Positions 7,192 to 29,165 of a stretch of 42,498 nt of DNA are shown in pieces. Made by a program: the position numbers and the translations under genes. Source of the stretch: a virus; the IMG/VR virus record IMGVR_UViG_3300005836_000027, positions 1 to 42,498 of that record, one strand, 5' to 3'. Under the pieces are notes generated by a model. It saw nothing but the letters and a program-made list of their open reading frames with translations. It made no database searches and was not told the DNA's origin. Within the stretch, counting starts at the first letter, position 1, and the number at the start of each line of letters is the position of its first letter.

Positions 7192-7246
7192 GACATTCAA
7201 CAAAGATAGCCCACAATCCTGAGATGGACGGGCCTAGGAGATCAAA

Positions 7247-8329: not shown

Positions 8330-8408
8330 CGTATCCGTCCGCTAAACATTTAGTGCAAAAAGGGCCTTGTCATAAACGTCTAACGACGTGACGGACTAGG
8401 CAGATAAT

Positions 8409-10543: not shown

Positions 10544-10555
10544 AAGGGGAAAATA

Positions 10556-10846
10556 ATGAGAAAAATAATTGGAAGTCTTGTTGTTTCATTGCTGGCGGCA
10601 TACGGGTCATTTGTTTATGCAGACAGTCAGGCTACATCCTTGGGGCTTGTCCGTGTGCAGATTTCAAGCGCACCCATTGCTCTTATCAATACAACTGTTC
10701 CATTCGGGGCATTTGAGTTGATTGGTTGTACGGATTGCATTCAGAGTTCTCTCTGTATTTCTTCCGGGACGGGGACTGGCGCCTACGTTGTTTCTTCGTC
10801 GAGCCATTCGATTGGGAGCCTGGCAACCATGGTCCATTGTCGGTAG
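10556..10846 (+). CDS. Small secreted Cys-containing, Ser/Gly/Thr-rich protein
   Basis: The N-terminus MRKIIGSLVVSLLAAYGSFVYA/DS looks like a Sec signal peptide. SD is AAGGGGA. The predicted mature part has 4 Cys. Confidence 0.5.
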   Translation: MRKIIGSLVVSLLAAYGSFVYADSQATSLGLVRVQISSAPIALINTTVPFGAFELIGCTDCIQSSLCISSGTGTGAYVVSSSSHSIGSLATMVHCR

Positions 10847-10852
10847 CAATAT

Positions 10853-12322
10853 ATGGCTAAAGAACCCATTCTCAGTTTCGTCATCCCGGTCTATAAGAAA
10901 TCTCCCGAGACGTTTACTAAATGCCTTCATTCCCTGTTTGACCAGTCGATCAAAGACTTTGAAGTCATCTGTGTGTTTGATGGCCCTGACGCGGAGCTGG
11001 AAGCGGTAGCCAAAAGGTACAACGTGACGTCTCTTGTGATTGAGCATGGCGGGGCTTGCAAGGCCCGAAACGCGGGATTTGCGGCTTCGCGCGGTCGGTA
11101 CGTGGCGCACTGGGACGCGGATTGCTTTATAAAGCCTGAAGCGGCGAAGATTTGGCTTGAAACCTTCGATCGTAATCCAGAAGCGGCTTTCGTCTATTCG
11201 GGGTATGAATTCGAAAACGAAGGCGGCGGATTTAATTCAGAGATGTTTGACGAGTATAGCCTTAAGTGCGGCAATTACATTGCTTCCATGTTTCCAGTCA
11301 AGCGGGAGTTCTTTCCGGGGTGGGACGAGTCGCTCAAGGCGGCGCAGGATTGGGATTTCTGGCTCTCTGTAGTCGAAAAAGGCGGAAAGGGCATATTTAT
11401 CCGTGGGTATGGGTTTATAACGGAACTCCCAGAAAAAGACAGCATTTCGTATTCGGGATGGTCTGCGGCCAACCGAGTGGAAACGATCCGAACGGTTCGC
11501 AGAAAACACGGCATCCAAGACAAAGACATCGCTGTTTACGGCGCCGTCCATAACCTGAAAGCCCTGCATTTAGCCAAGCTCTTGGGCGGGGATACGCTTA
11601 AAGGCTCTGGCCTTCCGGCGAACACGTACAAGATGATCTTAAATCTTGGTTATAGCCAGATGGTTCGCTTTAAAGGAGTCGCCGAAGGCGCGGTCAAGAT
11701 TCATTACTGGATGCCATGGGATATTGACTGTCTCTATGAGATCGCTCATCGTACCGCTAAAGAAACGATTCGCCTTGCCAATGAGGAGATCACGCACCAG
11801 TTCTGCAACGATATCGTGTCACAGAAAAGGCTCAAGGAGCTTGGGATTAAAGCAGAGATTCTGCCGCTTCCGACCGAGATTGATGATTTGGAGTCGGACC
11901 TTCCGGCGGACTTCAGGGTCTTAATTGACGTAGACAAAGCGCACGAACCGATTGTGGCGAATTTGGACAAGGACATTCCCTACATCAAGATTGACCGGCT
12001 GGAGATGGCGGCTTCGATCTCTAAATACTCGCTTCTCATCAGCTTTCATGAGAATCCTTACGCCGACGAGGGGATGAAGCGCTTTATGTTAAATGGCCGA
12101 AACATCATTTCAAACGTTCAGGCTCCCTTCTGCGGGTTCTTTGACTTAGAGCGTGGGCATACGGAGTTCCGAAAAGAGTTGATCGCGCAAATCCGCATGG
12201 CACGGAATTATCCTTTCAACAAAGAGGCGCAGGACTACTATAAGACGCTCGTTGATCCTTGTAAGTTCAAAGAACGGGTGTTGGCACTACTTCCGAAGCC
12301 TGTTTTAGAGGTGGTTGGATGA
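10853..12322 (+). CDS. Two-domain glycosyltransferase (N-terminal GT2, C-terminal GT-B-like region)
   Basis: GT2 motifs are LSFVIPVYKK, FDQSIKDFEVICVFDG, ARNAGFAASRG and the DxD in HWDADC. The C-terminal ~250 aa resemble a divergent Rossmann-type GT domain. Confidence 0.8.
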   Translation: MAKEPILSFVIPVYKKSPETFTKCLHSLFDQSIKDFEVICVFDGPDAELEAVAKRYNVTSLVIEHGGACKARNAGFAASRGRYVAHWDADCFIKPEAAKIWLETFDRNPEAAFVYSGYEFENEGGGFNSEMFDEYSLKCGNYIASMFPVKREFFPGWDESLKAAQDWDFWLSVVEKGGKGIFIRGYGFITELPEKDSISYSGWSAANRVETIRTVRRKHGIQDKDIAVYGAVHNLKALHLAKLLGGDTLKGSGLPANTYKMILNLGYSQMVRFKGVAEGAVKIHYWMPWDIDCLYEIAHRTAKETIRLANEEITHQFCNDIVSQKRLKELGIKAEILPLPTEIDDLESDLPADFRVLIDVDKAHEPIVANLDKDIPYIKIDRLEMAASISKYSLLISFHENPYADEGMKRFMLNGRNIISNVQAPFCGFFDLERGHTEFRKELIAQIRMARNYPFNKEAQDYYKTLVDPCKFKERVLALLPKPVLEVVG

Positions 12323-13017
12323 ACCCTAGAGCGAGTTTTGTAATTCCGGTGTTTAACGGAGAAGCCTATCTTCGGGAGACGCTTGACTCCTGCCTCGACC
12401 AGTCCGTGAAACAGCTTGAAGTGGTTGTGGTGGACGACGCGTCTACGGACGGGACCAAGGAGCTGATTGAGTATTTCGTTAAGAAAGACTCTCGGGTTAA
12501 GCCTATTTTCCTGACGGAAAATGCTGGATCAGCGAACGCCAGAAATGTCGGAAATCGGGCGGCGCAAGGGCAATATATTTTTGTTCTTGATGGGGATGAT
12601 AAAGCGACTCGGAACCGCGTGAAGGATACGATCACTTGTTTTGAGGCGAAGAATGCCGATCTTGTCTATGGAGGGTTTATCACGATTGACACGTTTGGGA
12701 ACATGGAACGCAGGTTTGCCCCGCATCCGTTTACCCGGGAAGCGTCGCTTAAGTACAAGACGCACCAAATCTGTCATTCCACGGTGGCTTACCGCAAAGG
12801 GCTGACCTTAAACGTGCAGTACCGGGAAGATCATGCCAAGTACGCGATGGAGGATTTCAGCTTTATCTGGAACGCCCACGCGAAAGGGTACAGGTTTGCC
12901 TACGTCAAGAATCCATTCTGCTATTACAGGGTGATGGATAGCTCGCAATCGACCCGAAGAAACGAATCCGAGGTCGTGAAAGCGAAGGAAGAATTTGTCA
13001 AAGCACTCGAAATCTAG
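12319..13017 (+). CDS. Glycosyltransferase family 2
   Basis: Motifs are SFVIPVFNGEAYL, LEVVVVDDASTDGT, ARNVGNRAAQG and FVLDGDD. The start is ATGA-coupled to the upstream GT. Confidence 0.85.
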   Translation: MNPRASFVIPVFNGEAYLRETLDSCLDQSVKQLEVVVVDDASTDGTKELIEYFVKKDSRVKPIFLTENAGSANARNVGNRAAQGQYIFVLDGDDKATRNRVKDTITCFEAKNADLVYGGFITIDTFGNMERRFAPHPFTREASLKYKTHQICHSTVAYRKGLTLNVQYREDHAKYAMEDFSFIWNAHAKGYRFAYVKNPFCYYRVMDSSQSTRRNESEVVKAKEEFVKALEI

Positions 13018-14206
13018 GCCGTTTCGCATTGCGATGATTCCGACCGCTAATGGCGGCGTGAATTACACGCGCCTCGCGGCATGGGCGTTTGAAATGCGGA
13101 AGTATCGGAACGTGGAAGCGAGCGTCCTTTACTTTCAGTACAACCTGATTCCGACGCATCCGTGGCAGAAAGACATCATTTCGGTCCCGCAGATCCGGCA
13201 GGACATTGAGTGTTTTGCCAGAGCCTCGGACGCCATGATTTGGCATCCCGTCTTTTACGATCACACCCTTGAATTCTTCAATGAGATCAGGCAGAAGTAC
13301 GGGAAGCCAACTTTTATCGAGACGGACGACAATTACATTGACGTTCCTGCGTGGAACGAGGCATTTCATTCCTTTGGTCCGACCTCGGCGCATCGGTATA
13401 TTGCGACGGAAGCGATGGCGTTTGCTGATGGGATGTTCGTGTCAACGCCGCACTTAAAAGAACTTTACGGGAAGTTTAACGAGAACATTCATGTCGTCGA
13501 GAATTCTCTTGATTTCAAGGGAGACAGGAAGTTTGTGGGATGGGATCAAGTCTCTGTCCGAAAGCACAAGGGGACCCGGCTTGGGTGGATTGGCGGGCGG
13601 TCGCATTTCAACGATTTGATGATGGTGGCACCTGTTTTGCGGGAGATTCTTGTCAAATACCCCGACGTGACGCTGTGCCTTGTGAATTCGGCGATCCAAC
13701 CCTCTTGCAAAGCGCTCGGCATAGCGTACCCTTTTGAAGGGCTTACGAACGTGCATTATGCGGATCGGTCGGTTCCGATCAACCGTTACGCGCAGTTTGC
13801 GGCGTCTTTTGGGTTTGATATCGGCCTTGCTCCGCTCGAGGACTGCAACTTCAATCGTTCCAAGTCGAATCTACGATGGCTGGAATATTCGGCCATGAAA
13901 ATTCCAACGATAGCGACTGATATCTCGCATTTCTCGCAGTCTATTCGTGACGGCCAAGACGGATTCCTCATCAAGAACAATGACTTGCAGGAGTGGAAGA
14001 ACCGTTTGGAAATGCTTATTAAGAGCCAAAGCACCAGAGAAGAAGTCGGCAGGCAGGCGTACAAGCGTGTCAAGAAGGATTTCAACTTAAAGACGAACGC
14101 CGCCAAGTACGTGCGGCTTCTAAAGAAGCTGAGCGATTTCAATGTGTTTACCACCCCGGAATACGAGGCGGTTGACGAACAATCGGAGGCGGCATTATGC
14201 AGTTAA
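12995..14206 (+). CDS. Glycosyltransferase, GT-B fold (GT1/GT4-like)
   Basis: The N-terminus is FRIAMIPTANGG. The C-terminal segment LEYSAMKIPTIATDISHFSQSIRDGQDGFLIKNND matches the EX7E-type GT4 sugar-donor region. Confidence 0.8.
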   Translation: MSKHSKSRPFRIAMIPTANGGVNYTRLAAWAFEMRKYRNVEASVLYFQYNLIPTHPWQKDIISVPQIRQDIECFARASDAMIWHPVFYDHTLEFFNEIRQKYGKPTFIETDDNYIDVPAWNEAFHSFGPTSAHRYIATEAMAFADGMFVSTPHLKELYGKFNENIHVVENSLDFKGDRKFVGWDQVSVRKHKGTRLGWIGGRSHFNDLMMVAPVLREILVKYPDVTLCLVNSAIQPSCKALGIAYPFEGLTNVHYADRSVPINRYAQFAASFGFDIGLAPLEDCNFNRSKSNLRWLEYSAMKIPTIATDISHFSQSIRDGQDGFLIKNNDLQEWKNRLEMLIKSQSTREEVGRQAYKRVKKDFNLKTNAAKYVRLLKKLSDFNVFTTPEYEAVDEQSEAALCS

Positions 14207-14907
14207 CAGACATCCAAGTATTGATTGGAACCCTGACGAATGATCCGAACCATGAAAGATACAGCACGACCGATATCGGCACGGAGTTTGATAACACGTC
14301 CGACAAATGGAACGTAGAAGCCAAGATCCTGAAAGATACGGTGACGCTCACGGTGGTGGCTGGAACCCGCCAGTACGCGCTTTCAGGGCTTACGGGGACG
14401 CCGATTTCGTTTACGCGGGTTACGCACAAGGGGCTCAAGCTAAACAAGAAAGACAAGGCATGGTTTGACCTTTATTACGGCGGGACGGACTGGACGACGA
14501 CGCCCGGGACGCCTGTGGACTATTTCGTGGAGGCGACGGACCCCGACTTACAGTATTTAACGGTGTTTCCTACCCCGGGTGATGGCGACGCGGGGGATAA
14601 CCTTGTCTGCGAGTACATCAAGCGGCACACGTCCATGTCGGCATCTACTGACGAACCGCTTAATTCCACCCCGCTTCTTGCTCCGTACCATTGGGGCATG
14701 TGCTACGACGCGGCGGCAAGACTCTTGATGCGCGACCCCACACAGGAAAACGTGGCGAAGGTGTCGGGATACGCGCAGATCGCCAATGGCGTGATGGCGG
14801 ACGTTGTTCAGGTATACAAAGCCTTTGAGAAGGAAGTTCCGATGCGCCTCAAGTCGATTACGAGGCCTGTCGGACAAGCGGTGACGGGGTGGCGCAGGGG
14901 ATGGTAG
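14197..14907 (+). CDS. Putative head-tail adaptor / connector protein
   Basis: 236 aa, and the first gene after the GT island, where an adaptor is expected between capsid and tail genes. Assigned by position only. Confidence 0.35.
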   Translation: MQLTDIQVLIGTLTNDPNHERYSTTDIGTEFDNTSDKWNVEAKILKDTVTLTVVAGTRQYALSGLTGTPISFTRVTHKGLKLNKKDKAWFDLYYGGTDWTTTPGTPVDYFVEATDPDLQYLTVFPTPGDGDAGDNLVCEYIKRHTSMSASTDEPLNSTPLLAPYHWGMCYDAAARLLMRDPTQENVAKVSGYAQIANGVMADVVQVYKAFEKEVPMRLKSITRPVGQAVTGWRRGW

Positions 14908-15019
14908 ACTGAAAAAGCTTCTTTTAATCGGATGTCTTTTAATACCGGGGTGGTCTTTAGCCGGAGATATTACTATTGGTTCTTTCCAAGGCCTGAACAC
15001 GCAGGACCATCCTGCGGCC

Positions 15020-17641
15020 TTGGAAGATGGAGAGTCCCAAGACCTCTTGAACGTGGACATCATCCCCGGCGGCAAGGGCGTAAAGAAGCGGGACGGCTAT
15101 GGTCTTCACAAGACTGTAGGAATCAGTACGTCGGCTATTCATGGCGGTCACTACTTTCAAGATACGTCTGGATCGGATATCCAGCTCTGGGGTGGGGACG
15201 TATACCTGAACGCCTCCGTAAACGGTGCGGCAACGGTCCAGATTGCTACTGGAACGCTCGCGGCAACGTGGCAATGTACGGACAACTCCGGTTATGCCTA
15301 TTGCGTCACGTCCAGCCGAAATACGCCAGTTCGCACGAGTGGAACGACCGCCACAACGACGTATCAGACAGGAATCCCTCTTGGGACCATGATTACGAAC
15401 ACCCCGGACCGCCTGCTTGTCGCCGGTGTGTCCGGCGCGGAGTCTACGCTCTACTTCTCACAAGCCAACACATTCACGAATTTCACAACGGGCATCAATT
15501 CGGCTGACCCTTTCACCGAAGTCATCAATTCCCCAGGCAGTCGCATAACGCATATCCGTTACGCCTGCGGGAAGGTCTTGTGGTGGAAGGATGGGTCTTT
15601 TGGGTACTCACTAGGATCAGACCAGTTCAACCTGGAGAACGTGACGGTTTCACAGAACATTGGGACGCTCGACAACTCCTCAGACGAATACAACGGGATT
15701 GTCTATTTCAGGGGACAGGATAACCACATTTACCAATACGATTGCTCAAACGTCACGCGTCTCTCCCGCAAGATCACGCCAACCGTAGAAGGATCTGGCC
15801 GCAGGAAGGCAAACTCTTGGACGCAGACGAGTCAGACGGATTTCGATAGCGGTGTTGGCATCCTATCTGGGAGTTTTTCTACGAGCCTTTCCCCTGGGGA
15901 TGTGGTTCTTTCTTCTTTTACAGCAACCGATACTATAACAGCCGACTTCGCGCAAGGAACGCTCACCAATACGACGGCTTACGCTGGCATTGGCGTAAGG
16001 CTCAGCACAAGCCCCGGAAACTTGCCAAACAATTCCATGGAGACGGCGAACGTCGGAGATGTCCTGTCTGATTGGGGCGCATATTTATTTACACGCTATG
16101 ACGGAGACGGGTCCATCGGCGGGAGTGCTTGCGGAACATCATGGTCTGACTTCGTGGGTACGAATTTTGCTTATTCTCTAGCTGGCCAATCGCCTTCCGC
16201 GTCTCCGAAGATCGTGACCACCATCTATGAGCTTTTGTCTGGAACAACGCTATATACAGACACAATCAATATGAGCGGAACGGCAGATTGTTCCTTTTCT
16301 ACGAGAACGATTACTGTATCTGCTTCCGATGTTGGAAAGCGCGTACAGCTTGTATTTATTTCGTCAGATACGAGCCCATCATCGGACATTGCCGTTCTTA
16401 GAACAACAAATTCGTTCGTTCTAAGCGGAGACATAAGCTATATGTATGCATGGGATACTAATGGCGGGAATCCTTATGCGGCGATTGACTGGGTAACTGG
16501 TGGAAGCAACACGATCAACTCAGGCCAATTCACGTCAAGGGTATTCAATACAGGTGTAACAAGCGCCATGGTTTACACTTCAGCCAACTGGACAGTAAAC
16601 ACGTCAACCCCATATCTCGAGGTGCAGACTTCTGCAAACGGAAGTAGCGGATGGACAAAAGTAACTTCCAGTACCGGTACAAACGTTTCCACGAACCAAT
16701 ATATACGCTACTTGTCGAGCTTTACGGTTGGCTCTAGCGATAACGCTCTATCCACACTTGATGACGTGTCATTTGTGGCTAAATCTACGGGCGGCGTATA
16801 CCTGTCAGCAGTCAATAACGCCTCGGGTGTCACGGAATGGAGTACCTTCGGGGCGAACGATCAGACGGGCGGGGGAACTATCGTTTACTCCGTTCGCGCT
16901 TCGACTCAACAGTTCACTATCCAGTCTAGCACCCCGCTATGGGCCACGCAGGACAAAAACGCTACCGTGAACTACGCCACAGGCACTTATATGCAGATGC
17001 GCGGGGCCTTTACCACCACTTCGGCCACCCAAGCCTTTGCTCTTAATGATTTTAGCTTCAACTGGTTTGAAGGAAACGCCGTTGATAAAGCCTACATCAA
17101 GTATTGGAACGACTACGTGTGGGTGGCGGTGTCTAGCGGAACGGCTGGTCTGAACAACCGCATCCAACGGTGGGACATCTTAAACCAGACGTGGCTCTTG
17201 GACGACATCTCAGCCAACGGGTTCTTGGTCGATAACAACAACCTCTATTTCGGAAGCTCATCTGTCGGCAAGATTTTCAAGTACGGGTCGGGTCTTACGA
17301 CGGATGATTCGTCTGACATCAACAGCTATTGGCGGTCAAAAGACTTCACAGGAGCAGACCCCTTTGTTCAGAACACATGGGACCAGCTCGACTTCATTGT
17401 GAAGCGGTCCTCCGGGACGTTCCTCGCGGTGGATTACCGCGTGAACGGATCAAGCGTCACGAACACCTATTCGATTAACCTCTACGACCCCGTTAAGACG
17501 ATCCTGCACAGGGGAAACAACCTCCCGGGGAAGAACGGGACATTCTTTAACGTGCAGTTTGGGGATAACAGCTCCAATCCCCGGTACGAGGTGTTGGGGC
17601 TCAGGGCGAGGTATACACCCCTTGGATGGCGGCCGGAATGA
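15020..17641 (+). CDS. Large virion-associated structural protein (tail nozzle or fibre-like, beta-rich, S/T/G/N-rich)
   Basis: 873 aa counted from the first ATG. The frame is open back to 14885 and encodes a signal-peptide-like extension (see findings). No specific family was recognised. Confidence 0.6.
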   Translation: MEDGESQDLLNVDIIPGGKGVKKRDGYGLHKTVGISTSAIHGGHYFQDTSGSDIQLWGGDVYLNASVNGAATVQIATGTLAATWQCTDNSGYAYCVTSSRNTPVRTSGTTATTTYQTGIPLGTMITNTPDRLLVAGVSGAESTLYFSQANTFTNFTTGINSADPFTEVINSPGSRITHIRYACGKVLWWKDGSFGYSLGSDQFNLENVTVSQNIGTLDNSSDEYNGIVYFRGQDNHIYQYDCSNVTRLSRKITPTVEGSGRRKANSWTQTSQTDFDSGVGILSGSFSTSLSPGDVVLSSFTATDTITADFAQGTLTNTTAYAGIGVRLSTSPGNLPNNSMETANVGDVLSDWGAYLFTRYDGDGSIGGSACGTSWSDFVGTNFAYSLAGQSPSASPKIVTTIYELLSGTTLYTDTINMSGTADCSFSTRTITVSASDVGKRVQLVFISSDTSPSSDIAVLRTTNSFVLSGDISYMYAWDTNGGNPYAAIDWVTGGSNTINSGQFTSRVFNTGVTSAMVYTSANWTVNTSTPYLEVQTSANGSSGWTKVTSSTGTNVSTNQYIRYLSSFTVGSSDNALSTLDDVSFVAKSTGGVYLSAVNNASGVTEWSTFGANDQTGGGTIVYSVRASTQQFTIQSSTPLWATQDKNATVNYATGTYMQMRGAFTTTSATQAFALNDFSFNWFEGNAVDKAYIKYWNDYVWVAVSSGTAGLNNRIQRWDILNQTWLLDDISANGFLVDNNNLYFGSSSVGKIFKYGSGLTTDDSSDINSYWRSKDFTGADPFVQNTWDQLDFIVKRSSGTFLAVDYRVNGSSVTNTYSINLYDPVKTILHRGNNLPGKNGTFFNVQFGDNSSNPRYEVLGLRARYTPLGWRPE

Positions 17642-18249
17642 GGTATTTACTTTTGATCTTTCTGGCTTCTTCGAGTTTTGCGGCATCCAAGTACCAGTAC
17701 AAAGATCCAAAGATGGATGACGAGATTCAGAATATTTACCACGAGATTGACAGCGTTTTAAAAGGAGACGTGCGTATCAGCTCAGTAACGATAACGACGT
17801 TGACGGTAACGGGGACGATTAATATCTCATCTCTTGGGAAAGTTAAACAAGTGACGATGTGTACTGTTTCGGCGGCTTCTTCAACCGTTGTGGCAAGTTT
17901 CGTGCCGTCGAATATGACGTGTTCTGTGACTCCCACGGCGACTACAAGCAATGTTTTGATTCAGGTTAACGGTCAAGCCGCCACGAACACAAACGTCAAT
18001 CGGTGCCGGTTTTCCATTTTCAGGGGGACGACGAATCTTATGGATGCGACGGAGGGGGGGACGAATCTCTTGAACAATGTCGTTACCACGACGCTGGAAG
18101 TGCCGATGTCGCTTACGTATTTGGACAGTCCTTCGTCGACGAGTTCAACGAGTTATACCCTGTATTTTAAAAGCGACGGGACAAATGCGTGTCGGTACAA
18201 CAGCCTTAGCGCTACAGGCGTAATGGTACTCACAGAAATAGGATCTTAG
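17638..18249 (+). CDS. Signal-peptide-bearing, Thr/Ser-rich structural-module protein
   Basis: ATG 17638 overlaps the upstream stop (ATGA). The N-terminus is MRYLLLIFLASSSFA/AS. The ORF track begins at 17626. Confidence 0.5.
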   Translation: MRYLLLIFLASSSFAASKYQYKDPKMDDEIQNIYHEIDSVLKGDVRISSVTITTLTVTGTINISSLGKVKQVTMCTVSAASSTVVASFVPSNMTCSVTPTATTSNVLIQVNGQAATNTNVNRCRFSIFRGTTNLMDATEGGTNLLNNVVTTTLEVPMSLTYLDSPSSTSSTSYTLYFKSDGTNACRYNSLSATGVMVLTEIGS

Positions 18250-18258
18250 GAGGAATTT

Positions 18259-19227
18259 ATGGCAACACCTTGGGGTAGTGGAACAGGCGGAGGAATAGAG
18301 GCTCAGCGATGGTACGCGAACCGGGACTTTCAGGAGATTTTCGGGAGAGCGCCTTCGGAAGCGGAGTTGTCTCAATTTCAAGCGGCGTATGATTCTGGCG
18401 ATATCAATAAAGCCAATGTCTCAGGCGGGCGCTCGTCCATCGCTCAATACTACCAGTCTCAGGAGAACACGCCTGATAAACAATACGCCAGACAACAGGC
18501 GGGATACGAAGCAAAAGCCCCTGAGTTTTATGGACAAATTGACAAGATGTTCCAAGGAACGCTTGGGCGTGATGCAACCGACGCAGAGCGAAAGCATTTT
18601 GGATCGTTGCTCGCATCCGGGCAAGTGGATGAGTACGGAGTTGGACAATTCCTACAAGCGCTCCCAGAGAACGTCAAAAAACAGGACACCGAATTCAGGA
18701 ATCAATTAAGCGGAGAACTTCAGAAGCAGGACGCTCAGTATTACAACGAACAAATCATGCCCGGGATTCAGTCGGCGTTTGCCCAGCAGGGCCGTGACCC
18801 AAGATCATCGGGTTTTGCCAATTCGCTCGCGCTTGCCGCACAGGGTCAGAACAGGCAGAGAGAAGGGTTTCTCTCGAACCTATCGGCTCAACAGTACGGC
18901 GGAAGTCAGAATTTAGCTCAGAGGGATTATTTGAACGCTTACGGTCAATATACGGGGTTGCAGGATTATTCGCGTCAACGTTCCGCGCAACTTCAGGACG
19001 CGACGACCGGTCGAGTGAATGAGTTGCAGAACTACGCCCTTCAGAGATCGGCTTATGACGATTACTTGAGACGATATGGGAAACGGTCTAACGCGCAAGG
19101 GATCGGAAGTCTGGCAGGTGGTATTGCTGGCATGGGCGGCGCATTTTTGACAGGGAACCCCTCCGCCGCAGGAGTGGGGTATCAGATCGGCTCTGGTCTT
19201 GGCGGCGGGATAGGGAGCTTTTTCTAA
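18259..19227 (+). CDS. Gln-rich protein with two DUF4214-like segments and a C-terminal glycine-zipper tail
   Basis: The segments are IFGRAPSEAELSQF...SQE and LGRDATDAERKHFGSLLASGQV...LPE. The C-terminus is GIGSLAGGIAGMGGAFLTG...GSGLGGGIGSFF. It is a candidate internal or ejection protein. Confidence 0.45.
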   Translation: MATPWGSGTGGGIEAQRWYANRDFQEIFGRAPSEAELSQFQAAYDSGDINKANVSGGRSSIAQYYQSQENTPDKQYARQQAGYEAKAPEFYGQIDKMFQGTLGRDATDAERKHFGSLLASGQVDEYGVGQFLQALPENVKKQDTEFRNQLSGELQKQDAQYYNEQIMPGIQSAFAQQGRDPRSSGFANSLALAAQGQNRQREGFLSNLSAQQYGGSQNLAQRDYLNAYGQYTGLQDYSRQRSAQLQDATTGRVNELQNYALQRSAYDDYLRRYGKRSNAQGIGSLAGGIAGMGGAFLTGNPSAAGVGYQIGSGLGGGIGSFF

Positions 19228-19238
19228 GGAGAACTAAC

Positions 19239-20567: not shown

Positions 20568-21418
20568 GTGAGGAAGAAGATCGTGCAAGATATCGATATC
20601 TTCAGTTAAAAGCGAAGGCTCAAATTTCTATTCCACAGGAAGTGAATGCGCTAGAACAACCCGATTCTTCTATGTTAGATGTTGCTCAACAGGCTGGCAA
20701 AGAAGCCTTGATGCAACCAGGAACCTATATGCGAGATCTGGCGACTGACCCTATAACACAAGCCAAAGCATTACCTCCTTTAGCAGGAGTTGCTGGTGCT
20801 TTCATGGGCGGCCCATTCAGCATGACAAAAACACAACTTCCAGCGCGGGCTTTATCTGATGCTGCACTAGCGGCTTATGGAAGAAAAGAAGAAATCCCGT
20901 CTCCTATGGCTCATGCCGTAGAAGCGGCAACGACGGTTGGAGCAGATGTCTTAGCGATTCCTTTTGCTCATAAAGCTGTACGTGGCTCTCAAATTGGAGC
21001 AATAGAAAAAGCAGCAGGTGTCCCTCCTCCGCAAGATATTCCTAGTCTTCCACGACCGGCTGGCGCCGGCCCCGTTTCTGGGGCCATCGATGAAGCTATT
21101 GCATCTGTAAAACAAGGGGTTGATAAGTCGCCTTTATATTGGAAACAACTCAAGGATCAGATCAGCTGGTTTTATGAAAGAGGAAAAGATGCTGTTTTAT
21201 CTTCTGGTGACAGGCAAAAGCTGGCATGGTTATCTGGAGAGGTTCAGAAAGGTTTAAATGTGGCTGTTCCAGGTCGAGGACTTCCAGCCAGCCAGATGGC
21301 AAATGCTATGAAAGCTCCCAATGTAATTTCAAAGATGTATGGGAAGATTCCTCCCATAGTCAGAAGAACTGTGATCCCAATAACTATTTTAGAAGAGTAT
21401 ATGAGACGAAGGCATTAA
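20564..21418 (+). CDS. Hypothetical protein (structural module)
   Basis: 284-aa ORF, ATGA-coupled to the upstream gene. Confidence 0.5.
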   Translation: MSEEEDRARYRYLQLKAKAQISIPQEVNALEQPDSSMLDVAQQAGKEALMQPGTYMRDLATDPITQAKALPPLAGVAGAFMGGPFSMTKTQLPARALSDAALAAYGRKEEIPSPMAHAVEAATTVGADVLAIPFAHKAVRGSQIGAIEKAAGVPPPQDIPSLPRPAGAGPVSGAIDEAIASVKQGVDKSPLYWKQLKDQISWFYERGKDAVLSSGDRQKLAWLSGEVQKGLNVAVPGRGLPASQMANAMKAPNVISKMYGKIPPIVRRTVIPITILEEYMRRRH

Positions 21419-21433
21419 GAAAGGAATTAAATT

Positions 21434-21577
21434 ATGCCCTACAAAAGTGAAAAACAGAGATCTTTCTTCCATGCCGCTGCCCAGCGTGGAGAGATTTCGA
21501 AGAAAACTGTAGCCGAATGGGACAACGCTTCCAAAGGGAAGAAACTTCCTGAGAAAGCGAAAAAAGGAAAGAAATGA
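21434..21577 (+). CDS. Small basic protein, DUF3008-like (KSEKQRSFFHAAA motif)
   Basis: 47-aa ORF below the track cutoff, sequence MPYKSEKQRSFFHAAAQRGEISKKTVAEWDNASKGKKLPEKAKKGKK. Its stop overlaps the next ATG (ATGA). The motif recurs in small phage proteins. Confidence 0.5.
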   Translation: MPYKSEKQRSFFHAAAQRGEISKKTVAEWDNASKGKKLPEKAKKGKK

Positions 21578-21869
21578 ATACAGGGAAAGAAGCCGTACGA
21601 AGGCTCAATATCATGGTTTCCTCGGGGACTGGAACGGGGCTCGTGGTAAGTCAATGGGATTTGGCGAGGTGGGTGAGAGTCGTCCCGGTTAACGAGTCGG
21701 ACACTTTTGACGTGACGTTTAAGGATGGGGATGGGTTCATTATGGGGAAGTTTACAGGGCAGTCTGGAACTTTCTCATCGAGGCTTGAAATTAGTCTTGG
21801 AATTATGAAATCGGTCTTGATCGAGAACGCCGCGCAGGATGGCACATATATCTGTCTCTTTGATTTGCA

Positions 21870-21873
<4 letters not shown>
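21574..21873 (+). CDS. Hypothetical protein
   Basis: 99-aa ORF, coupled at both ends. Confidence 0.5.
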
Positions 21874-25265
<3,392 letters not shown>

Positions 25266-25269
<4 letters not shown>

Positions 25270-26459
25270 AAAGATTATTCTTTTTGATGAGTTGTCTTTC
25301 GGTTCCTACGTTTAGTCTGGCGACCGTCAAGAACTTAACGGGATTTGAGACAGGGGATACGCTCGAATTGAACTTATCTGCCGGAACCATGAGTATTCAG
25401 TCCACAACGAAACGGACAGGCGGATACGCTCTTCAAACAAATCCTACTACGACGAACACGGGGAGCGTGACTTTGAATGCTCAAGACAACGGAACCAATA
25501 CGACCTATGGCGCGGGAGTTATGTACTACCGATTTTATTTCCGTTACGGGACAAAGCCCTCCGCAGGAATGGAGCCCATCTTTCGCGTGGATGCCGCCGG
25601 ATCGGCATTAAAAGCGCAACTCAACATCAATTCCGGCGGGTTTATCGTTGTAGTAGATTCGGCTTCTGTGGCCATCAGTACAGGGACGACCGCACTGAGT
25701 GCCAATACCTGGTATAGGCTTGAGTTTACGTGCGGAGCAGGAGCTACTCCGCAGGCCTATGAACTAAAAATAGACGGGACATCGGAACTATCCGGAACGG
25801 CCTTTATGGGATCGGGGAATCATTCTGCTTCTTTGTTTGGAAAAACAACAAACTTTAATGGGAATACGGTCGATTTTTATTACGACGATTTTCTGGCCGA
25901 TACGGCTTCATTTCCGGGCGCAGGGCAGATTGAAACAATGATTGCCGATTCGACGGGGACTTATACCACATGGTCTATTGGGGCGGGTTCTGGCGCGCAA
26001 TGGGAACAAGTCGATGAAGTGCCGACGGATTCCAACACCACCTATTTACTTTCCACAAACACGGATGGGAATATCGTGAGCTTCGGGCTTGAATCGACGA
26101 CTAGCGCCGGCATATCAGGAACTATTAAAGCCGTCAAGGTTGTGAACATCGTTGCAAGGAACACGACAAACGGAAGTCTTGAGTCGCATCTTAGAAGCGG
26201 AGGGACGGATTCAGCTTCTGGTGCGGGATCAACCATTGCGGGCTATCAGGTCAGAACGGGTCTTGTTCTCGAAACCGACCCCTCGGATTCCTCGGCATGG
26301 ACAACCGCTGATTTGGATGCTGTTGAAATAGGGGCGGTTGAAAACAGCGGAACGGTTAAATCGCGTCTTTCCACAAGTTTTCTGTCCGTTGATTTTGCGC
26401 CATCCGTGGGCGGAAGCACTGCTCCTCCGATGGTACGACGGGTAATGGTTGTCCAATGA
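25266..26459 (+). CDS. Signal-peptide-bearing jelly-roll (LamG / concanavalin-like) receptor-binding candidate
   Basis: GTGA-coupled start. The N-terminus is (M)KRLFFLMSCLSVPTFSLA/TV. GFETGD...RTGGYAL and WYRLEF..YELKIDG resemble lectin-type beta-sandwich proteins. Confidence 0.45.
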
Positions 26460-26704
26460 TTCACGAAAGGGCAGACGATATTCCACAGTGGGTTAAATGG
26501 GGTCTGACGATATTCAACCGGGCTGGATTCCCAGCGATTGCCTTCGGTGTTTTGGCCTATCTTCTCTTCGTCAAGATGGAACAGCAGACAGATATGATCC
26601 ATAACTTTAACGTGACGCTTTCGGAAATGAAATCAGCGATGGACGCATCCAATGAAACGAACAAGCGATTGATTGAGGCGATTTACAGGACAAGGACGCG
26701 GTGA
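26456..26704 (+). CDS. Single-pass membrane protein (holin or lysis-accessory candidate)
   Basis: 82 aa, ATGA-coupled. The transmembrane segment is GFPAIAFGVLAYLLFV and the C-terminus is charged. Confidence 0.45.
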   Translation: MIHERADDIPQWVKWGLTIFNRAGFPAIAFGVLAYLLFVKMEQQTDMIHNFNVTLSEMKSAMDASNETNKRLIEAIYRTRTR

Positions 26705-26845
26705 GTGCCCGAGGACGAGTCATTACGGGCTTGTCCACTCTGCAAAGGAATATGCGAAGTCGAATGGTGCGTCCTTGACGGGATCTGGTGGGAATGTCGT
26801 CATTGTGGGATCAGGTTCAAAGATTATTCGACGGATTCACGATAA
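26705..26845 (+). CDS. Candidate 46-aa zinc-ribbon protein (CPLC...CRHC)
   Basis: GTG 26705 immediately follows the in-frame TGA of the upstream ORF. AAGGA lies 8 nt upstream. Below the ORF-track cutoff. Confidence 0.3.
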   Translation: MPEDESLRACPLCKGICEVEWCVLDGIWWECRHCGIRFKDYSTDSR

Positions 26846-26889
26846 GAATAGCGTTTCGATTTTGGGGGGTCAAGGCTTTGGAGCCTAAG

Positions 26890-27318
26890 ATGCAGGACGT
26901 GATGACGATTGAGCGCGAATGGTTTACGGACAAGTCTACGGAGGGCCGTCTCATGTTTGATGGAGTATTTTTCTGTTTTACGCTTGAGGATACATGCCGG
27001 AGACAAAAAGTTCATGGCTCGACGGCTATCCCTTCCGGACGCTATGAGATTGTTTTGGATTACTCGACACGCTTTAAGAAGATCATGCCGCATCTCTTAA
27101 ACGTTCCGAAGTTTGAAGGAATCCGTATTCATAGCGGCAATACGTCCGTAGACACGGACGGCTGTATCTTGGTCGGCATGAAACGTGGGTTAGACGTGAT
27201 TTATGAATCAAGACGCGCCTGTGAGCTTGTGATGAATGAAATTGAAGCGCGACTGAAGAAAGGGCCTGTCTACGTGGCGGTTGTGGGCGGCATCTCGAAA
27301 GATCAATTTGAGGCTTAA
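26890..27318 (+). CDS. DUF5675-like protein, candidate cell-wall hydrolase (YkuD-like H...GC motif)
   Basis: ATG 26890 has a GGAG 6 nt upstream. Motifs are TEGRLMFDGVFFCFTLED, IPSGRYEIVLDYS, LLNVPKFEGIRIHSGNTSVDTDGCILVG. The ORF track starts at 26788. Confidence 0.55.
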   Translation: MQDVMTIEREWFTDKSTEGRLMFDGVFFCFTLEDTCRRQKVHGSTAIPSGRYEIVLDYSTRFKKIMPHLLNVPKFEGIRIHSGNTSVDTDGCILVGMKRGLDVIYESRRACELVMNEIEARLKKGPVYVAVVGGISKDQFEA

Positions 27319-27551
27319 TGGTTAAAGTCATCACGATTGACCGCGAAGATTGCGAGTTCCTTTCGGAGAAGTTCAGGTCGCCACGATTTAAGAATGTTCG
27401 GTTTAAGACGTGCGAATCACCGTTTCATTACTGGGTGTTGGGGTCGGCGAGTGCGAGCCGGTGTCTTTGCGGTAGATACAGGTATACGAGATGCTACGAA
27501 AAAAACAAATGGCTGATTCGTCTTATTATTGCCAAAGAGGAGGGCCTGTGA
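27318..27551 (+). CDS. Hypothetical Cys-rich basic protein
   Basis: 77-aa ORF, TAATG-coupled to the upstream gene and GTGA-coupled to the downstream gene. Confidence 0.35.
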   Translation: MVKVITIDREDCEFLSEKFRSPRFKNVRFKTCESPFHYWVLGSASASRCLCGRYRYTRCYEKNKWLIRLIIAKEEGL

Positions 27552-28138
27552 AAAAATGGCTTGTACTTGTTGTTTCCGTTTTAGGGCTATCGAACGTTTA
27601 CGGAGATCCCACGCACGATAAACTGGTGGAAGCCATAAACGCGCTCTCGGGTGAAGTGATGACCCTTCAAGCCAAATTGATAGATCTTTCTCAGTCTCAG
27701 GCGAGTCTGCTTATTGCGGCGAGATCGGTTAATATCGGGCGTGCGTCTTTACTGGCGGGCGCGGTCGCATCAGGAAGTCCGGGCTCCAATGTCAGCTTTC
27801 CCATTTCGTTTGTGAAAGGGCCGGCGGGCGTAGCGGCTTTGCAATGGGATCTCGTGGTCCCGTCAAGCTTTACGGTTTTAAGTGTTACGGCGGGCCCCGT
27901 GGCGACGGCGGCGGGGAAGAGCGTTCAATATGTAATGAGTGGGAATGTGGCTCGCATTATTATCTTCGGACTTAATCAGGACGTGATCGAAACAGGCGTT
28001 GTCGCCATTGTGACCGTGCGCCCATTAGCGACAATCCCGAGAGGCACTTATCCCATCCCGGTACGCTCGCCAGTGGCTTCGAATGCGGCCGGTGGGAGTG
28101 TCCTTATTCTTGAAACGTCCGGGGCGGTGATTTTATGA
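27548..28138 (+). CDS. Secreted coiled-coil plus cohesin-like beta-sandwich protein
   Basis: GTG 27548 follows GAGGAGGG. The N-terminus is (M)KKWLVLVVSVLGLSNVYG/DP. The segment GSNVSFPISFVKGPAGVAALQWDLVVPSSFTVLSVTAGPVA...GTYPIPV resembles cohesin domains. Confidence 0.45.
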   Translation: MKKWLVLVVSVLGLSNVYGDPTHDKLVEAINALSGEVMTLQAKLIDLSQSQASLLIAARSVNIGRASLLAGAVASGSPGSNVSFPISFVKGPAGVAALQWDLVVPSSFTVLSVTAGPVATAAGKSVQYVMSGNVARIIIFGLNQDVIETGVVAIVTVRPLATIPRGTYPIPVRSPVASNAAGGSVLILETSGAVIL

Positions 28139-28452
28139 AAACACTTTCGGAAGTGGTAGCGGCGTGGTTGCTCGCGCCTATCTTAAATAAACTAAACACA
28201 ATGGAGGACACAATGAGCGCACTTAGCGACGCAATCGCAGTACTGCAAACAAACGTATCGGCACTAGGGACTCAGTTATCGACGGTGGCGGAGAGCTTGC
28301 TCACCGAGATTCAGGAAATTAACGCGAAGATCGAGGCGGGTTCAGTGACTCAGGCGGACTTGGATAACCTGACGGCACTTCAGGCGACTTTGGCCGGGAT
28401 GTCGGCAAATGTCACGCAACTTGATACGGACATCAAGAACATCATTCCGTAG
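28135..28452 (+). CDS. Coiled-coil protein with a weakly hydrophobic N-terminus (i-spanin-like or fibre-like)
   Basis: 105 aa, ATGA-coupled. It shows heptad-like sequence such as LSDAIAVLQTNVSALGTQLSTVAESLLTEIQEINAKIEAG. Confidence 0.45.
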   Translation: MKTLSEVVAAWLLAPILNKLNTMEDTMSALSDAIAVLQTNVSALGTQLSTVAESLLTEIQEINAKIEAGSVTQADLDNLTALQATLAGMSANVTQLDTDIKNIIP

Positions 28453-28712
28453 TGAACCGCATCAAACTATGGATTATTGAAAAGGGGGCTAATCGCATGA
28501 TCCAAAAGCTCGAAGGATACAAGACCCATGCCGTTCAGGTCGTGGCCGTCCTCGTGGGCGTTTCATGTTTCATCTGGGGCCCGATTGACTTGGGAAGTAT
28601 TCACTTGCCTAAAATCGAGTTCAAGGAGTTGCTTGAAATTCTGCAAATCGGAGGCGGCCTTTCGTTTCTGAGAATGGCCCTTAACAAAAAAACGGAGGAA
28701 CCACCACAATGA
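28452..28712 (+). CDS. Putative holin-type membrane protein
   Basis: The pattern LEGYKTHAVQVVAVLVGVSCFIWGPIDLG...LQIGGGLSFLRMALNKK resembles small phage holins. The start is GTG 28452 or ATG 28498. Confidence 0.45.
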   Translation: MNRIKLWIIEKGANRMIQKLEGYKTHAVQVVAVLVGVSCFIWGPIDLGSIHLPKIEFKELLEILQIGGGLSFLRMALNKKTEEPPQ

Positions 28713-29119
28713 AGAAATTGCTTATAGTAAGTTTAGCGAGCTTAGGGATTCTTTGTAATGTCCCTAAACTTTCCATAGCTGATGACGCGGCGTTCTTTAA
28801 GATCGGTCCTTTGTCACTAAACGTTCCCTTTAAGACAGGTATGGTTACTTATATGTATGACTTTAATGCAAATAAGAATCTTATCGGAGGGGAAACGATA
28901 CTGGCGACTGTATGGGATCGTGTGGAGGGAACCCTGGGAGCCGTGACGAGCTTGGACGGACAGGGAACGCCTTTTGTGGGAGGAAATATCCTGCTTGGGA
29001 ATCTGCTTGATCGGTGGGTGACGCTTCCTTCGGACATTCGGATCGGAGGATTTGGCGGATATGATTTTAACGCTGAAACTCCAATCTATGGGTTAAAGGC
29101 CAGCTATAAGCTCTGGTAG
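28709..29119 (+). CDS. Secreted beta-rich protein with a C-terminal aromatic residue (small outer-membrane beta-barrel-like)
   Basis: The N-terminus is MKKLLIVSLASLGILCNVPKLSIA/DD. Alternating hydrophobic segments are present and the protein ends ...YGLKASYKLW. ATGA-coupled. Confidence 0.4.
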   Translation: MKKLLIVSLASLGILCNVPKLSIADDAAFFKIGPLSLNVPFKTGMVTYMYDFNANKNLIGGETILATVWDRVEGTLGAVTSLDGQGTPFVGGNILLGNLLDRWVTLPSDIRIGGFGGYDFNAETPIYGLKASYKLW

Positions 29120-29165
29120 TAAATCACTGATCCAAAAAGAGAGTATACTTCTATAGATAGAATCT

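Follow-up and report, generated by a model that had tools for sequence, protein, structure and literature searches.

Predicted Sec-type signal peptides on the tail proteins of an uncultured podovirus-like phage lineage

Late genes of the window and their N-termini

The window, i.e., the whole stretch of 42,498 nucleotides analyzed here (IMGVR_UViG_3300005836_000027), is a complete, podovirus-like contig of 42.5 kb and encodes a portal and an adaptor of the SU10 type; the eight leader-bearing genes and the head, adaptor, ejection-like and lysis genes lie on its plus strand. The head module (4793..9449; Pfam and PHROGs) comprises the portal (4793-6865; Pfam SU10_portal, E = 1.9e-25), a scaffold-like protein (7247-8329) and the major head protein (8409-9449; phrog_1357, E = 8e-29), with a small protein gene between the first two. 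A protein of 96 aa (10556..10846; sequence and homologues) is flanked by a 77-aa protein (10310-10543) and a glycosyltransferase at 10853. The SU10-type head-to-tail adaptor (14197..14907; Pfam SU10_adaptor, E = 1.2e-13) completes the portal-scaffold-capsid-adaptor module, and directly 3' of it lies the gene of a 910-aa tail nozzle protein (14909..17641; AlphaFold, Foldseek and homologues), in an order identical in all relatives. The next gene encodes a short fibre or knob protein of 203 aa (17638..18249, with an alternative ATG at 17626; AlphaFold, Foldseek and relatives). Three proteins of 322, 442 and 284 aa (18259..21418) are putative internal or ejection proteins, assigned only from position and composition: they have zero Cys, the first has a Gly-rich C-terminus, and no match was found in PHROGs.

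The tail fibre of 847 aa (22418..24961), identified by its homologues, is followed directly by a 103-aa protein (24958..25269), whose GTG start overlaps the fibre stop, and by a 397-aa protein (25266..26459), a probable second fibre or receptor-binding protein on the basis of Pfam, PHROGs and positional analogues. The lysis genes (26456..27318; Pfam and sequence) encode a holin-like protein of 82 aa (26456-26704), with a single transmembrane segment read from the sequence, and a DUF5675 protein (26788-27318; Pfam DUF5675, E = 2.9e-33), which we take to be the endolysin, this being our reading of the family and not an annotation; relatives have Peptidase_M15_3 at this position. As the putative endolysin bears no signal, holin-dependent opening of the inner membrane is implied. 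A cohesin/Ig-like protein of 196 aa (27548..28138; Pfam Cohesin, E = 6e-6, above the cut-off) is read from a GTG within an ORF that opens at ATG 27491, this internal start having GAGGAGG as a strong Shine-Dalgarno motif, and the late/lysis block is closed by a 136-aa protein (28709..29119), whose gene overlaps that of a membrane protein (28452-28712) by 4 nt.

The initial annotation had ascribed Sec-type signal peptides to eight of these proteins, and all eight N-termini are present in the sequence where it had placed them: MRKIIGSLVVSLLAAYGSFVYA/DS in the 96-aa protein (10556-10621), (L/M)KKLLLIGCLLIPGWSLA/GD in the nozzle (14909-14962), MRYLLLIFLASSSFA/AS in the short fibre (17638-17682), VKKWLVLVVSVLGLSNVYG/DP in the cohesin/Ig-like protein (27548-27604), MKKLLIVSLASLGILCNVPKLSIA/DD in the 136-aa protein (28709-28780), and the leaders of the tail fibre (22418-22471), the 103-aa protein (24958-25002) and the 397-aa protein (25266-25322). 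N-termini were classed as SP-like by a self-written, rule-based heuristic, which demands K/R in the n-region, a minimum of 7 uncharged hydrophobic residues, cleavage at 14-36 and small residues at -3/-1; it is the only predictor behind all the SP counts in this work and gives false positives, e.g., the GT2 protein at 12319. The heuristic accepted 8/8 proteins. In each protein, K/R stands among the first 2-4 residues, 13-19 uncharged residues run to the predicted site, and the site itself is of the small-x-small kind; seven of them, the nozzle being the exception, have ATG or GTG as initiation codon together with Shine-Dalgarno motifs. With n-, h- and c-regions thus in place, the N-termini behave, as far as sequence can tell, as cleavable Sec-type signals. 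Other classes of signal were rejected. RR occurs in 0/8 n-regions, as opposed to Tat signals, and the only lipobox-like string of the SPase II type, LIGC in the window nozzle, would cut the leader to 8 residues and does not occur in the homologues; there is no other conserved Cys at +1.

Among the structural proteins the leaders occur only distal to the adaptor, the head, portal, scaffold, adaptor and ejection-like proteins being without one. The adaptor, which is kept in all relatives and is SP-like in none, marks the boundary, being the final structural gene without a signal ahead of the nozzle. SP-like by the heuristic was 1/28 portal homologues, a false positive caused by an internal start. 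This adaptor-distal restriction is a pattern absent from the initial annotation.

The nozzle leader and its homologues

The AlphaFold model of the 910-aa protein (pLDDT 87.2) has the beta-propeller-based nozzle fold, and all PDB structures at Foldseek ranks 1-25 are podovirus tail or nozzle structures (E down to 2.5e-15), including T7 gp12, the P22 and Sf6 tail complexes, SU10 and the crAss001 muzzle; matches in BFVD include P22 gp10-like stabilization proteins. At the sequence level no match to the nozzle was found in the PDB. Judged by the predicted model, the protein is a true podovirus tail nozzle. Its leader appears in the model as a detached helix (pLDDT about 52-64 over residues 2-10); a strand at 19-23 begins the mature chain.

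The leader of the window nozzle contains no ATG, GTG or TTG; the sole candidate start is CTG 14909, 1 nt past the adaptor stop, with a Shine-Dalgarno-like motif AGGGGA 7 nt upstream. The public gene call (P0121) begins the nozzle at TTG 15020, giving 873 aa and omitting the leader. Apparently the leader is nevertheless translated, since in homologues (L004, L007 and many relatives with P-numbers) an ATG immediately precedes the same leader; in L007 an in-frame stop lies shortly upstream of it. In several relatives this position offers just ATC or ATT, or no obvious start, and in L042/L043 the nearest TTG would give a leader of just 11 residues, so that not every member of the family clearly makes the full signal.

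The nozzle family numbers at least 674 clusters at E <= 1e-30, and among 114 full-length representatives drawn from the best 150 clusters the leader is present in 103. The N-termini of the best 120 of 182 nozzle homologues were inspected; as in a first alignment, the leaders are divergent in sequence and keep their n/h/c character, stopping just before a conserved mature start, (G)[DE]-I-x-I-x-x-F-x-G-L-N. For the 93 homologues with a recognizable site, residue -1 is A in 47, G in 33, S in 11 and C in 2, residue +1 is D/E/G/Q in 79 (mostly D/E/G), and the n-region contains K/R in 88. Leaders have a median length of 20, with a median of 15 for the uncharged run (n = 83, partly overlapping with the 93); runs of at least 20 residues were found in 3/83, a few leaders reaching 20-23, and the helix breakers P/G, read by eye, are frequent at -4 to -6.

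The short fibre consists of the signal peptide, a helix and a TNF-like jelly-roll domain (AlphaFold pLDDT 81, with a low-confidence leader). Foldseek matched it to the TNF-like lectins PLTL and BC2L-C, to Pgp3 and to the CBD of the short tail fibre of cyanophage A-1(L). Its gene follows the nozzle in every relative and encodes a leader followed by GPKYxYxD; no leader was found on the homologues of its C-domain in other phages, which have ordinary N-termini. Thus, the nozzle fold and the TNF-like knob bear out the earlier claim that true virion tail proteins carry the signals. For the long fibre, 78 of the 120 best homologues are SP-like, and all 17 homologues that share its N-domain (17/17) have DTG as the start of the mature chain, at a distance of 17-20 residues from the N-terminus. 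The 397-aa protein matches Pfam SO2946-like_C at E = 3.5e-5, which is under the curated cut-off, and phrog_6368 at E = 3.7e-7; its positional analogues in L049, L055 and L059 are SP-like, the last one having a Laminin_G_3 domain, and the analogue in L048 has a hydrophobic start that the heuristic rejected.

The small proteins behave similarly. The 96-aa protein has positional or sequence homologues with different leaders in L043, L052, L053 and L063 (90 aa in L063, with 4 Cys over the whole protein), and residues 22-72 are matched in L054 by tblastn. The L062 homologue (18147-18536) of the 136-aa protein has an unrelated leader, MKKTLLLLAVLVSPAFA, and a near-identical mature start, DDTAFFKLGPLSLNVPFKT, the conserved form being DD[AT]AFFK.GPLSLNVPFKT. 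In L063 a cohesin-domain protein (19491-20237) bears its own leader. The 103-aa protein is known from this one sequence, with no homologue in the fetched relative loci, where other SP-bearing genes occupy its position (L062 13408-14100, L063 17471-18199); its role may be that of an exported factor for fibre assembly. As the initial annotation had proposed to check, the homologues retain the leaders, in their n/h/c character, and the leaders, as the alignments read, are under selection for this character and not for sequence.

Recurrence beyond chance, cysteines and lineage

Applied to control loci of unrelated phages, the heuristic found 21/306 ORFs SP-like (about 7%), and 1/47 when only proteins of 400 aa or more were counted; in loci of this family the counts were 54/292 and 21/72 (Fisher p = 2e-5 for all ORFs and 8e-5 for the large proteins). 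At the background rate, 8 or more SP-like proteins among the 35 late genes would be expected with a probability of 0.002, and no minus-strand early gene of the window was SP-like by the heuristic. The recurrence therefore goes beyond chance, as had been supposed, and chance or an annotation artefact, for which the positive rate in unrelated ORFs might speak, has a practically negligible probability and is already refuted by these values and by the conservation of the leader over hundreds of divergent homologues.

Mature nozzles have an even number of Cys in 87 cases and an odd one in 21 (p = 1e-10, the sequences being treated as independent of phylogeny), as compared with 80:68, about 50:50, in the pooled non-signal families. 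C123/C132 co-occur in 59 of 60 nozzle sequences; C220/C279 are both present in 44 and both missing in 16, never occurring singly. The 17 N-domain fibre homologues share a conserved C-x12-13-C pair, and 15 have an even and 2 an odd count; contrary to this trend, the window fibre has an odd count (5). The mature parts of the window nozzle, short fibre and 96-aa protein have 6, 4 and 4 Cys, respectively. Such a disulfide signature points to real export, parity being no proof of periplasmic folding, because disulfides could also form after release.

No prophage of this lineage was found in 185,579 GTDB species genomes and no match among cultured phages; tblastn of the portal and nozzle against GenBank phages gave zero matches. 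Membership in the Kuravirus/SU10-like phages was rejected, the relatedness in portal and adaptor being only at the Pfam level. On this evidence the lineage is a large group of uncultured, short-tailed phages that share SU10-type parts and stand outside the SU10 genus.

Possible extracytoplasmic maturation of the tail

Every adaptor-distal tail protein begins with a conserved export signal, thus suggesting a tail that is built outside the cytoplasm. We consider it rather probable that the leaders are genuine, cleavable Sec/SPase I signals marking the whole adaptor-distal tail module (the nozzle, the TNF-like short fibre, the long fibre, the second fibre-like protein and several small accessory proteins), which would mature in the periplasm and join the heads at lysis. 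The host Sec system would translocate the tail proteins into the periplasm, assuming a diderm envelope, or into another oxidizing compartment, where they would be cleaved, form disulfides and pre-assemble into tails. DNA-filled, adaptor-capped heads would meanwhile mature in the cytoplasm, and the two might come together no earlier than lysis, once the inner membrane has been opened by the holin, or in the lysate; the holin-like gene together with the signal-less putative endolysin would supply this opening. We know of nothing similar to such head-tail joining at lysis among tailed phages.

The same hydrophobic N-termini would also do as uncleaved signal-anchors, or membrane tethers, that organize tail assembly on the inner membrane and are freed by late cleavage or by the collapse at lysis, much as phage SAR endolysins are tethered and then released, and the few leaders with the longest uncharged runs would fit this. 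Such tethering is possible but unlikely, because the h-regions are mostly too short to span a bilayer, and the small -1/-3 and acidic +1 residues, unneeded by an anchor, are conserved over hundreds of divergent homologues. An anchor with N-terminal K/R would still leave the bulk of the protein periplasmic, so that it differs from a cleavable signal only in whether and when it is cleaved.

Tailed phages are known to assemble in the cytoplasm, and nozzle and fibres contact the host envelope, where hydrophobic peptides could help; the N-termini might then never be seen by Sec and be kept on the virion as membrane-inserting peptides or attachment helices. We find this unlikely. The same tripartite leader stands on eight unrelated folds, its sequence is unconserved although the adjacent mature start is conserved, an exposed n/h/c leader would be captured by SRP or SecA, and the -3/-1 rule and the cysteine pairing would have no role. 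The conserved buried attachment helix envisaged as a refutation of the signal reading does not agree with the unconserved leader or with its detached, low-confidence helix, which AlphaFold leaves unpacked against the fold.

An unusual host cell plan (e.g., of the PVC type, with a large periplasm or inner compartments), in which the signals route tail proteins to the site of completion, would suit so large a family with no cultured relative and no prophage, as expected for poorly cultured hosts. It seems quite unlikely, as the lysis genes (holin-like, with DUF5675 or M15 peptidases) look ordinary and the median leader length is typical of ordinary diderm signals. Very improbable is export of these proteins as decoys, receptor masks or superinfection-exclusion factors, with virion copies made from leaderless internal starts, even though exported exclusion proteins of phages are known (T5 Llp, lambda Lom/Bor) and the public gene call begins at just such a start, TTG 15020. 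With that start the mature chain would lose 19 conserved residues, the first strand among them; nor is the start conserved, given the ATG before the leader in relatives and the upstream stop in L007; the fibre, the short fibre and the other proteins have no alternative start. An essential nozzle included among the exported proteins, and no signal-less copy of it, make this reading hard to sustain. Of the initial interpretation, then, the Sec type, the tail proteins and the non-chance recurrence stand; among its four explanations (tethered intermediates, uncleaved attachment anchors, decoys or exclusion, an unusual host), decoys or exclusion are unlikely and uncleaved anchors disfavoured.

Known podovirus nozzles (T7 gp12, P22 gp10, Sf6, SU10, crAss001 muzzle) have ordinary N-termini and are assembled on the head in the cytoplasm. 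The window nozzle shares their fold (Foldseek prob 1.0) at about 10% identity, as well as the gene position after an SU10-type adaptor, and differs in having three Cys pairs and a leader of the cleavable type, all of them conserved. The short fibre shares the jelly-roll of its C-domain with PLTL, the BC2L-C N-domain and the A-1(L) CBD (TM up to 0.77 on the target) at about 13% identity, the leader and the GPKY motif being specific to the window lineage. Inoviridae pIII and pVIII are virion or receptor-binding proteins with signal peptides that pass through Sec/YidC before assembly; the likeness ends there, as they have no sequence or fold relation to the window proteins, and inoviruses are assembled by extrusion at the membrane and lack capsid, portal and lysis, whereas the genes here predict an icosahedral head, terminase, portal and holin-based lysis along with exported tail parts. 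Late proteins of tailed phages that use Sec through a signal or a signal-arrest-release domain, such as Lys44 of Oenococcus phage fOg44 and P1 Lyz, are lysis enzymes and not virion parts; here the tail proteins carry the signal and the putative endolysin carries none. Lambda Lom and Bor and T5 Llp are signal-bearing and encoded among or beside tail genes, but they are small, non-structural and accessory, unlike the essential nozzle and fibres that bear the signal here, where the trait is found throughout the lineage.

We found no precedent in the literature for a signal-bearing tail in a tailed phage, and the making of a tail outside the cytoplasm has not been described for these viruses. If the tail proteins do mature beyond the inner membrane, the likely benefit would be access to the oxidative folding machinery of the host, resulting in a more stable extracellular tail.

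Signal peptide-like leaders of the late proteins

The initial annotation had recognized Sec-type signal peptides (SP) at the N-termini of eight late proteins, starting at 10556, 14909, 17638, 22418, 24958, 25266, 27548 and 28709. These N-termini were read identically in the sequence of the window, and all eight passed a rule-based test, which asked for K/R in the n-region, a hydrophobic run free of charges, small residues at -3 and -1, and a site at positions 14-36. The Sec-type reading is well supported in silico: in n-region charge, length of the uncharged run and small residues at -1 and -3 the leaders conform to Sec/signal peptidase I signals, and they resemble neither lipoprotein nor Tat signals. 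The LIGC motif in the leader of the 910-aa nozzle protein (14909) was rejected as a lipobox, being short and not conserved. The 27548 leader begins with an internal GTG that has a strong Shine-Dalgarno motif. Gene calls conflict in this region (27318-27604), where an ORF for a Cys-rich 77-aa protein (27318-27551) overlaps an ORF opening at ATG 27491; the likeliest start of the SP-bearing product is GTG 27548, downstream of the GAGGAGG motif.

SP-like N-termini in the window are clustered in the plus-strand late region, and the same test revealed none among the minus-strand early genes. Unrelated phages sharing the DUF5675 gene served as the negative control; a search with the DUF5675 protein had retrieved only phages having that single gene in common with the window. 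A permissive scan of 20 unrelated phage loci gave 21 SP-like N-termini among 306 proteins and 1 among 47 proteins of at least 400 aa, versus 54/292 and 21/72, respectively, in 13 loci of the window's phage family (Fisher test, p = 2e-5 for all proteins and 8e-5 for those of at least 400 aa). At the background rate, eight or more of 35 late genes would be positive with a probability of 0.002. The claim that the pattern recurs too often to be accidental was thus upheld, and the conservation data described below refute chance as an explanation.

Relatives of the window were not found among GenBank phages, either by megablast with positions 10000-30000 or by tblastn with the nozzle and portal proteins, nor were related loci retrieved with a single nozzle protein or with the protein encoded at 19239-20567. 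The portal query yielded 21 related IMG/VR contigs, the nozzle alignment query 17 loci (fetched with 10 kb on each side), and exact protein matches four further loci; the NCBI records containing relatives are, to judge by the numbering of their contigs, bulk metagenome assemblies, not genomes. Profiles of the nozzle and portal had no matches in GTDB genomes and therefore provided no host clue, and no prophage copy was detected in 185,579 species-representative genomes. One relative, L059, carries a phage integrase (19890-20870), and the lineage may therefore include temperate members.

Nearly all relatives bear a leader on the nozzle, on the next gene and on the fibre (the 847-aa protein at 22418 in the window). 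Leaders also occur on the post-fibre genes and, if present, on the small gene at the position of 10556, and never on the terminase, portal, scaffold, capsid, glycosyltransferases, adaptor or three Cys-free proteins; the 24958 protein has no homologues in the fetched loci. Homologues keep the hydrophobic N-terminus, a check proposed initially for the fibres, and the leaders proved to be a lineage-wide rule. The leaders have almost no common sequence, and each stops just ahead of a conserved start of the mature part, i.e., the part following the predicted signal peptidase I site: (G)[DE]-I-x-I-x-x-F-x-G-L-N in the nozzle, DTG[FY]K..I.V.E.D..P.C..GQ in the fibre, GPKYxYxD...DDE..NIY in the 203-aa short fibre (17638) and DD[AT]AFFK.GPLSLNVPFKT in the last protein (136 aa, 28709).

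A search of 5.8 billion proteins yielded 182 nozzle homologues. An obvious cleavage site was present in 93 of the 97 homologues having a complete N-terminus, with A (47), G (33), S (11) or C (2) at -1 and mostly D, E or G at +1, and 88 of these 93 leaders contained K/R in the n-region. Across 83 homologues, some of them also in the former set, the median length was 20 for the leader and 15 for the uncharged run. Seemingly leaderless nozzle records were N-terminally truncated gene calls. When 1.84 billion representatives were searched with a profile, 2,803 related clusters emerged (674 at E <= 1e-30); among the best 150 clusters a hydrophobic leader was found in 103 of 114 full-length representatives, the rest being mis-started. 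The leader is therefore an old trait, shared by practically all members of a very large lineage. At this level of analysis the leaders are shown to be canonical, positionally exact and selected for their character.

Gene layout and identity of the leader-bearing proteins

The window is an entire public metagenome contig, and the database entry of its fibre protein lists 42,498 bases as the longest contig. It has a podovirus gene layout. Its plus strand encodes the large terminase (2852-4333), an SU10-type portal (4793-6865; Pfam E = 1.9e-25), a scaffold-like protein (7247-8329), the major head protein (8409-9449; phrog_1357, E = 8e-29), four glycosyltransferases (9490-14206; three GT2-like and one GT1-like) and an SU10-type adaptor (14197-14907; Pfam E = 1.2e-13). 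After the adaptor come the nozzle of about 900 aa, the 203-aa protein, three Cys-free putative ejection proteins (18259-21418), and the 847-aa fibre with further late genes. Downstream of the fibre are the genes of a holin-like protein and of the DUF5675 protein, taken as a putative endolysin, and a 491-aa B12-binding radical SAM enzyme (29166-30641) closes the late operon. The early genes, including those of a DNA methylase, RusA and RadC, lie on the minus strand, a DegT-type aminotransferase gene (993-2186) is located upstream of the glycosyltransferases, and no tRNA genes were found in the window. The leader boundary is at the adaptor, and the signal-less putative endolysin adjoins the holin-like gene.

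The four glycosyltransferases between the capsid and adaptor genes are present in every relative, with a methyltransferase added in some. No flippase or oligosaccharyltransferase was seen, and a simple N-glycosylation link to these enzymes is unsupported, as the signal-bearing tail proteins show no enrichment of N-x-S/T sequons; the glycosylated target may be the capsid, the tail or the host envelope. The scaffold and the three putative ejection proteins contain no Cys in the window and in nearly all relatives examined; the tail proteins have paired Cys. The first putative ejection protein has a Gly-rich, glycine-zipper-like C-terminal tail, and none of the ejection-like or small late proteins had a match in PHROGs. 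A conserved signal-less 77-aa protein (10310-10543) precedes the small SP protein at 10556. It is duplicated in two relatives, L053 (5399-5626 and 17941-18168) and L058 (5451-5678 and 18008-18235), where the second copy immediately precedes the gene of an SP-bearing fibre (419 or 1,189 aa); this protein may serve exported proteins as a chaperone or partner. The lysis block ends in a membrane protein gene and the gene of the SP-bearing 136-aa protein, which overlap by 4 nt (28452-29119); the pair is also conserved in the relative L062 (17869-18536). The mature N-terminus of the 136-aa protein is nearly identical across genomes and its leaders are different. The pair, for which no family match was found, could be spanin-like or another envelope pair.

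Searched by sequence against the PDB, the nozzle, the fibre and the proteins at 25266 and 28709 had no matches. The AlphaFold model of the 910-aa nozzle, built with a 60-sequence alignment, had a mean pLDDT of 87.2; residues 1-20 formed a detached helix (pLDDT 52-64), and the confident fold began with a strand at 19-23. In the Foldseek search of PDB, ranks 1-25 were all podovirus tail structures, with E down to 2.5e-15 (Pa223, LME-1, Carin-1, cyanophage A4, SU10, T7 gp12, the P22 and Sf6 tail complexes, and the crAss001 muzzle), and a viral predicted-structure library agreed with the nozzle identity. The protein belongs to the same fold class as podovirus nozzles, but is not close to that of SU10 or any cultured phage. 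In the model of the 203-aa protein the leader is followed by a helix and a TNF-like jelly roll; matches of the model include the short tail fibre domain of a cyanophage as well as trimeric lectins. Judging from these models, the leader-bearing proteins are real tail parts. In other phages the knob has sequence relatives whose N-termini are ordinary, which indicates that the leader is the lineage's own innovation, added to a standard receptor-binding module.

The common tail-fibre motif of the fibre also occurs in 1,776 proteins, and 78 of the best 120 fibre matches were SP-like, including fibres on unrelated contigs. Two such phage-like contigs encode large SP-like fibre-like proteins with many Cys, L064 (6830-9586 and 10001-12397, with 18 and 12 Cys, next to a 1,406-aa protein without a leader) and L035 (7318-9555), so signal-bearing fibres may be more widespread than the lineage of the window.

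Nozzle start codon and cysteine pairing

No ATG, GTG or TTG precedes the conserved nozzle leader in the window (14885-15022) and in the relatives L042/L043 (4604-4700 in L043), L051, L052 (9938-10060), L053 (9881-10110) and L058 (9878-10060) with near-duplicates. In the window the only candidate is CTG (14909), with a Shine-Dalgarno-like motif; the other such relatives have ATC, ATT or nothing obvious, and the nearest TTG in L042/L043 would give an 11-residue leader. Some nozzle leaders among the relatives are unclear for this reason, and about 20 of 120 public nozzle gene calls are truncated because such a codon is lacking. A conserved programmed adaptor-nozzle frameshift was rejected as unlikely, since the frame relation varies by genome (+1, -1 or the same frame). 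Our guess is near-cognate initiation of the nozzle, coupled to adaptor termination.

In bacteria with DsbA, exported proteins are known to be marked by an even Cys count. The count was even in 87 of 108 mature nozzle homologues (binomial p = 1e-10, shared ancestry being ignored) and in 15 fibres versus 2 with an odd one; Cys-containing signal-less proteins (terminase, portal, capsid, glycosyltransferases and DegT), pooled, gave 80:68. Of six Cys-rich columns in the alignment of 60 nozzles, C123 and C132 were jointly present in 59, C220 and C279 were both present in 44, both missing in 16 and never found singly, and C408 and C461 occurred in 57 and 52 sequences, respectively. Such paired gain and loss is, on the alignment evidence, the pattern of disulfide partners; the signature fits export and does not prove the place of bond formation.

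Possible routes of tail assembly

Real export of the tail proteins is, in our opinion, likely. As for the assembly mechanism, we infer, with appreciably greater doubt, a two-compartment virion, in which a Sec-exported, signal-peptidase-processed, disulfide-bonded periplasmic tail would join cytoplasmic adaptor-bearing heads after the holin breach. After export via Sec and cleavage by signal peptidase I, the nozzle, fibres and helper proteins would become oxidised and would pre-assemble in the periplasm; heads would be packaged and adaptor-capped in the cytoplasm and would meet the tails through the holin's membrane lesions. Phages of the T7 and P22 types are known to have tail complexes that form independently and heads that can be completed in vitro, and late head-tail joining is therefore physically plausible.

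An unusual host is a rival explanation of low probability. Retention of the leader as an uncleaved membrane tether is disfavoured by the short h-regions and the conserved -1/-3 rule, and its role as a hydrophobic peptide resident in the virion by the same tripartite leader on eight unrelated folds, the drift of its sequence and its detachment in the nozzle model. Exported decoys alongside leaderless virion copies are likewise disfavoured: the internal start that such copies would use cuts off conserved residues and is itself not conserved, and in relatives an ATG stands at the leader.

Tailed-phage assembly is described in textbooks as entirely cytoplasmic. A full-text search, which is weak evidence as most subscription journals lie outside it, turned up no paper describing signal peptides on nozzle, fibre or other virion proteins of tailed phages, and the phiCbK paper mentions signals in lysis and methods context only. 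Filamentous-phage coat proteins (signal-bearing virion proteins) and secreted/SAR endolysins (tailed phages using Sec) are functional analogies, but not precedents for an exported tail. Ordinary signal peptides and ordinary nozzle and fibres thus stand here in an unprecedented combination, and there is a substantial chance that a new assembly route lies behind the leaders. Were it true, pipelines that trim such starts, or take a signal peptide as a non-structural mark, would mislabel hundreds of tail genes. Tails could use periplasmic folding machinery (Dsb enzymes, perhaps glycosylation), which may account for the durability of virions in freshwater and soil, and Sec, LepB and Dsb would become tailed-phage host factors and new points of resistance or dependency. 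It would be the first tailed-phage tail routed via the host secretory pathway, in a large and globally distributed lineage, and head-tail joining deferrable to lysis would alter the view of the order and timing of assembly.
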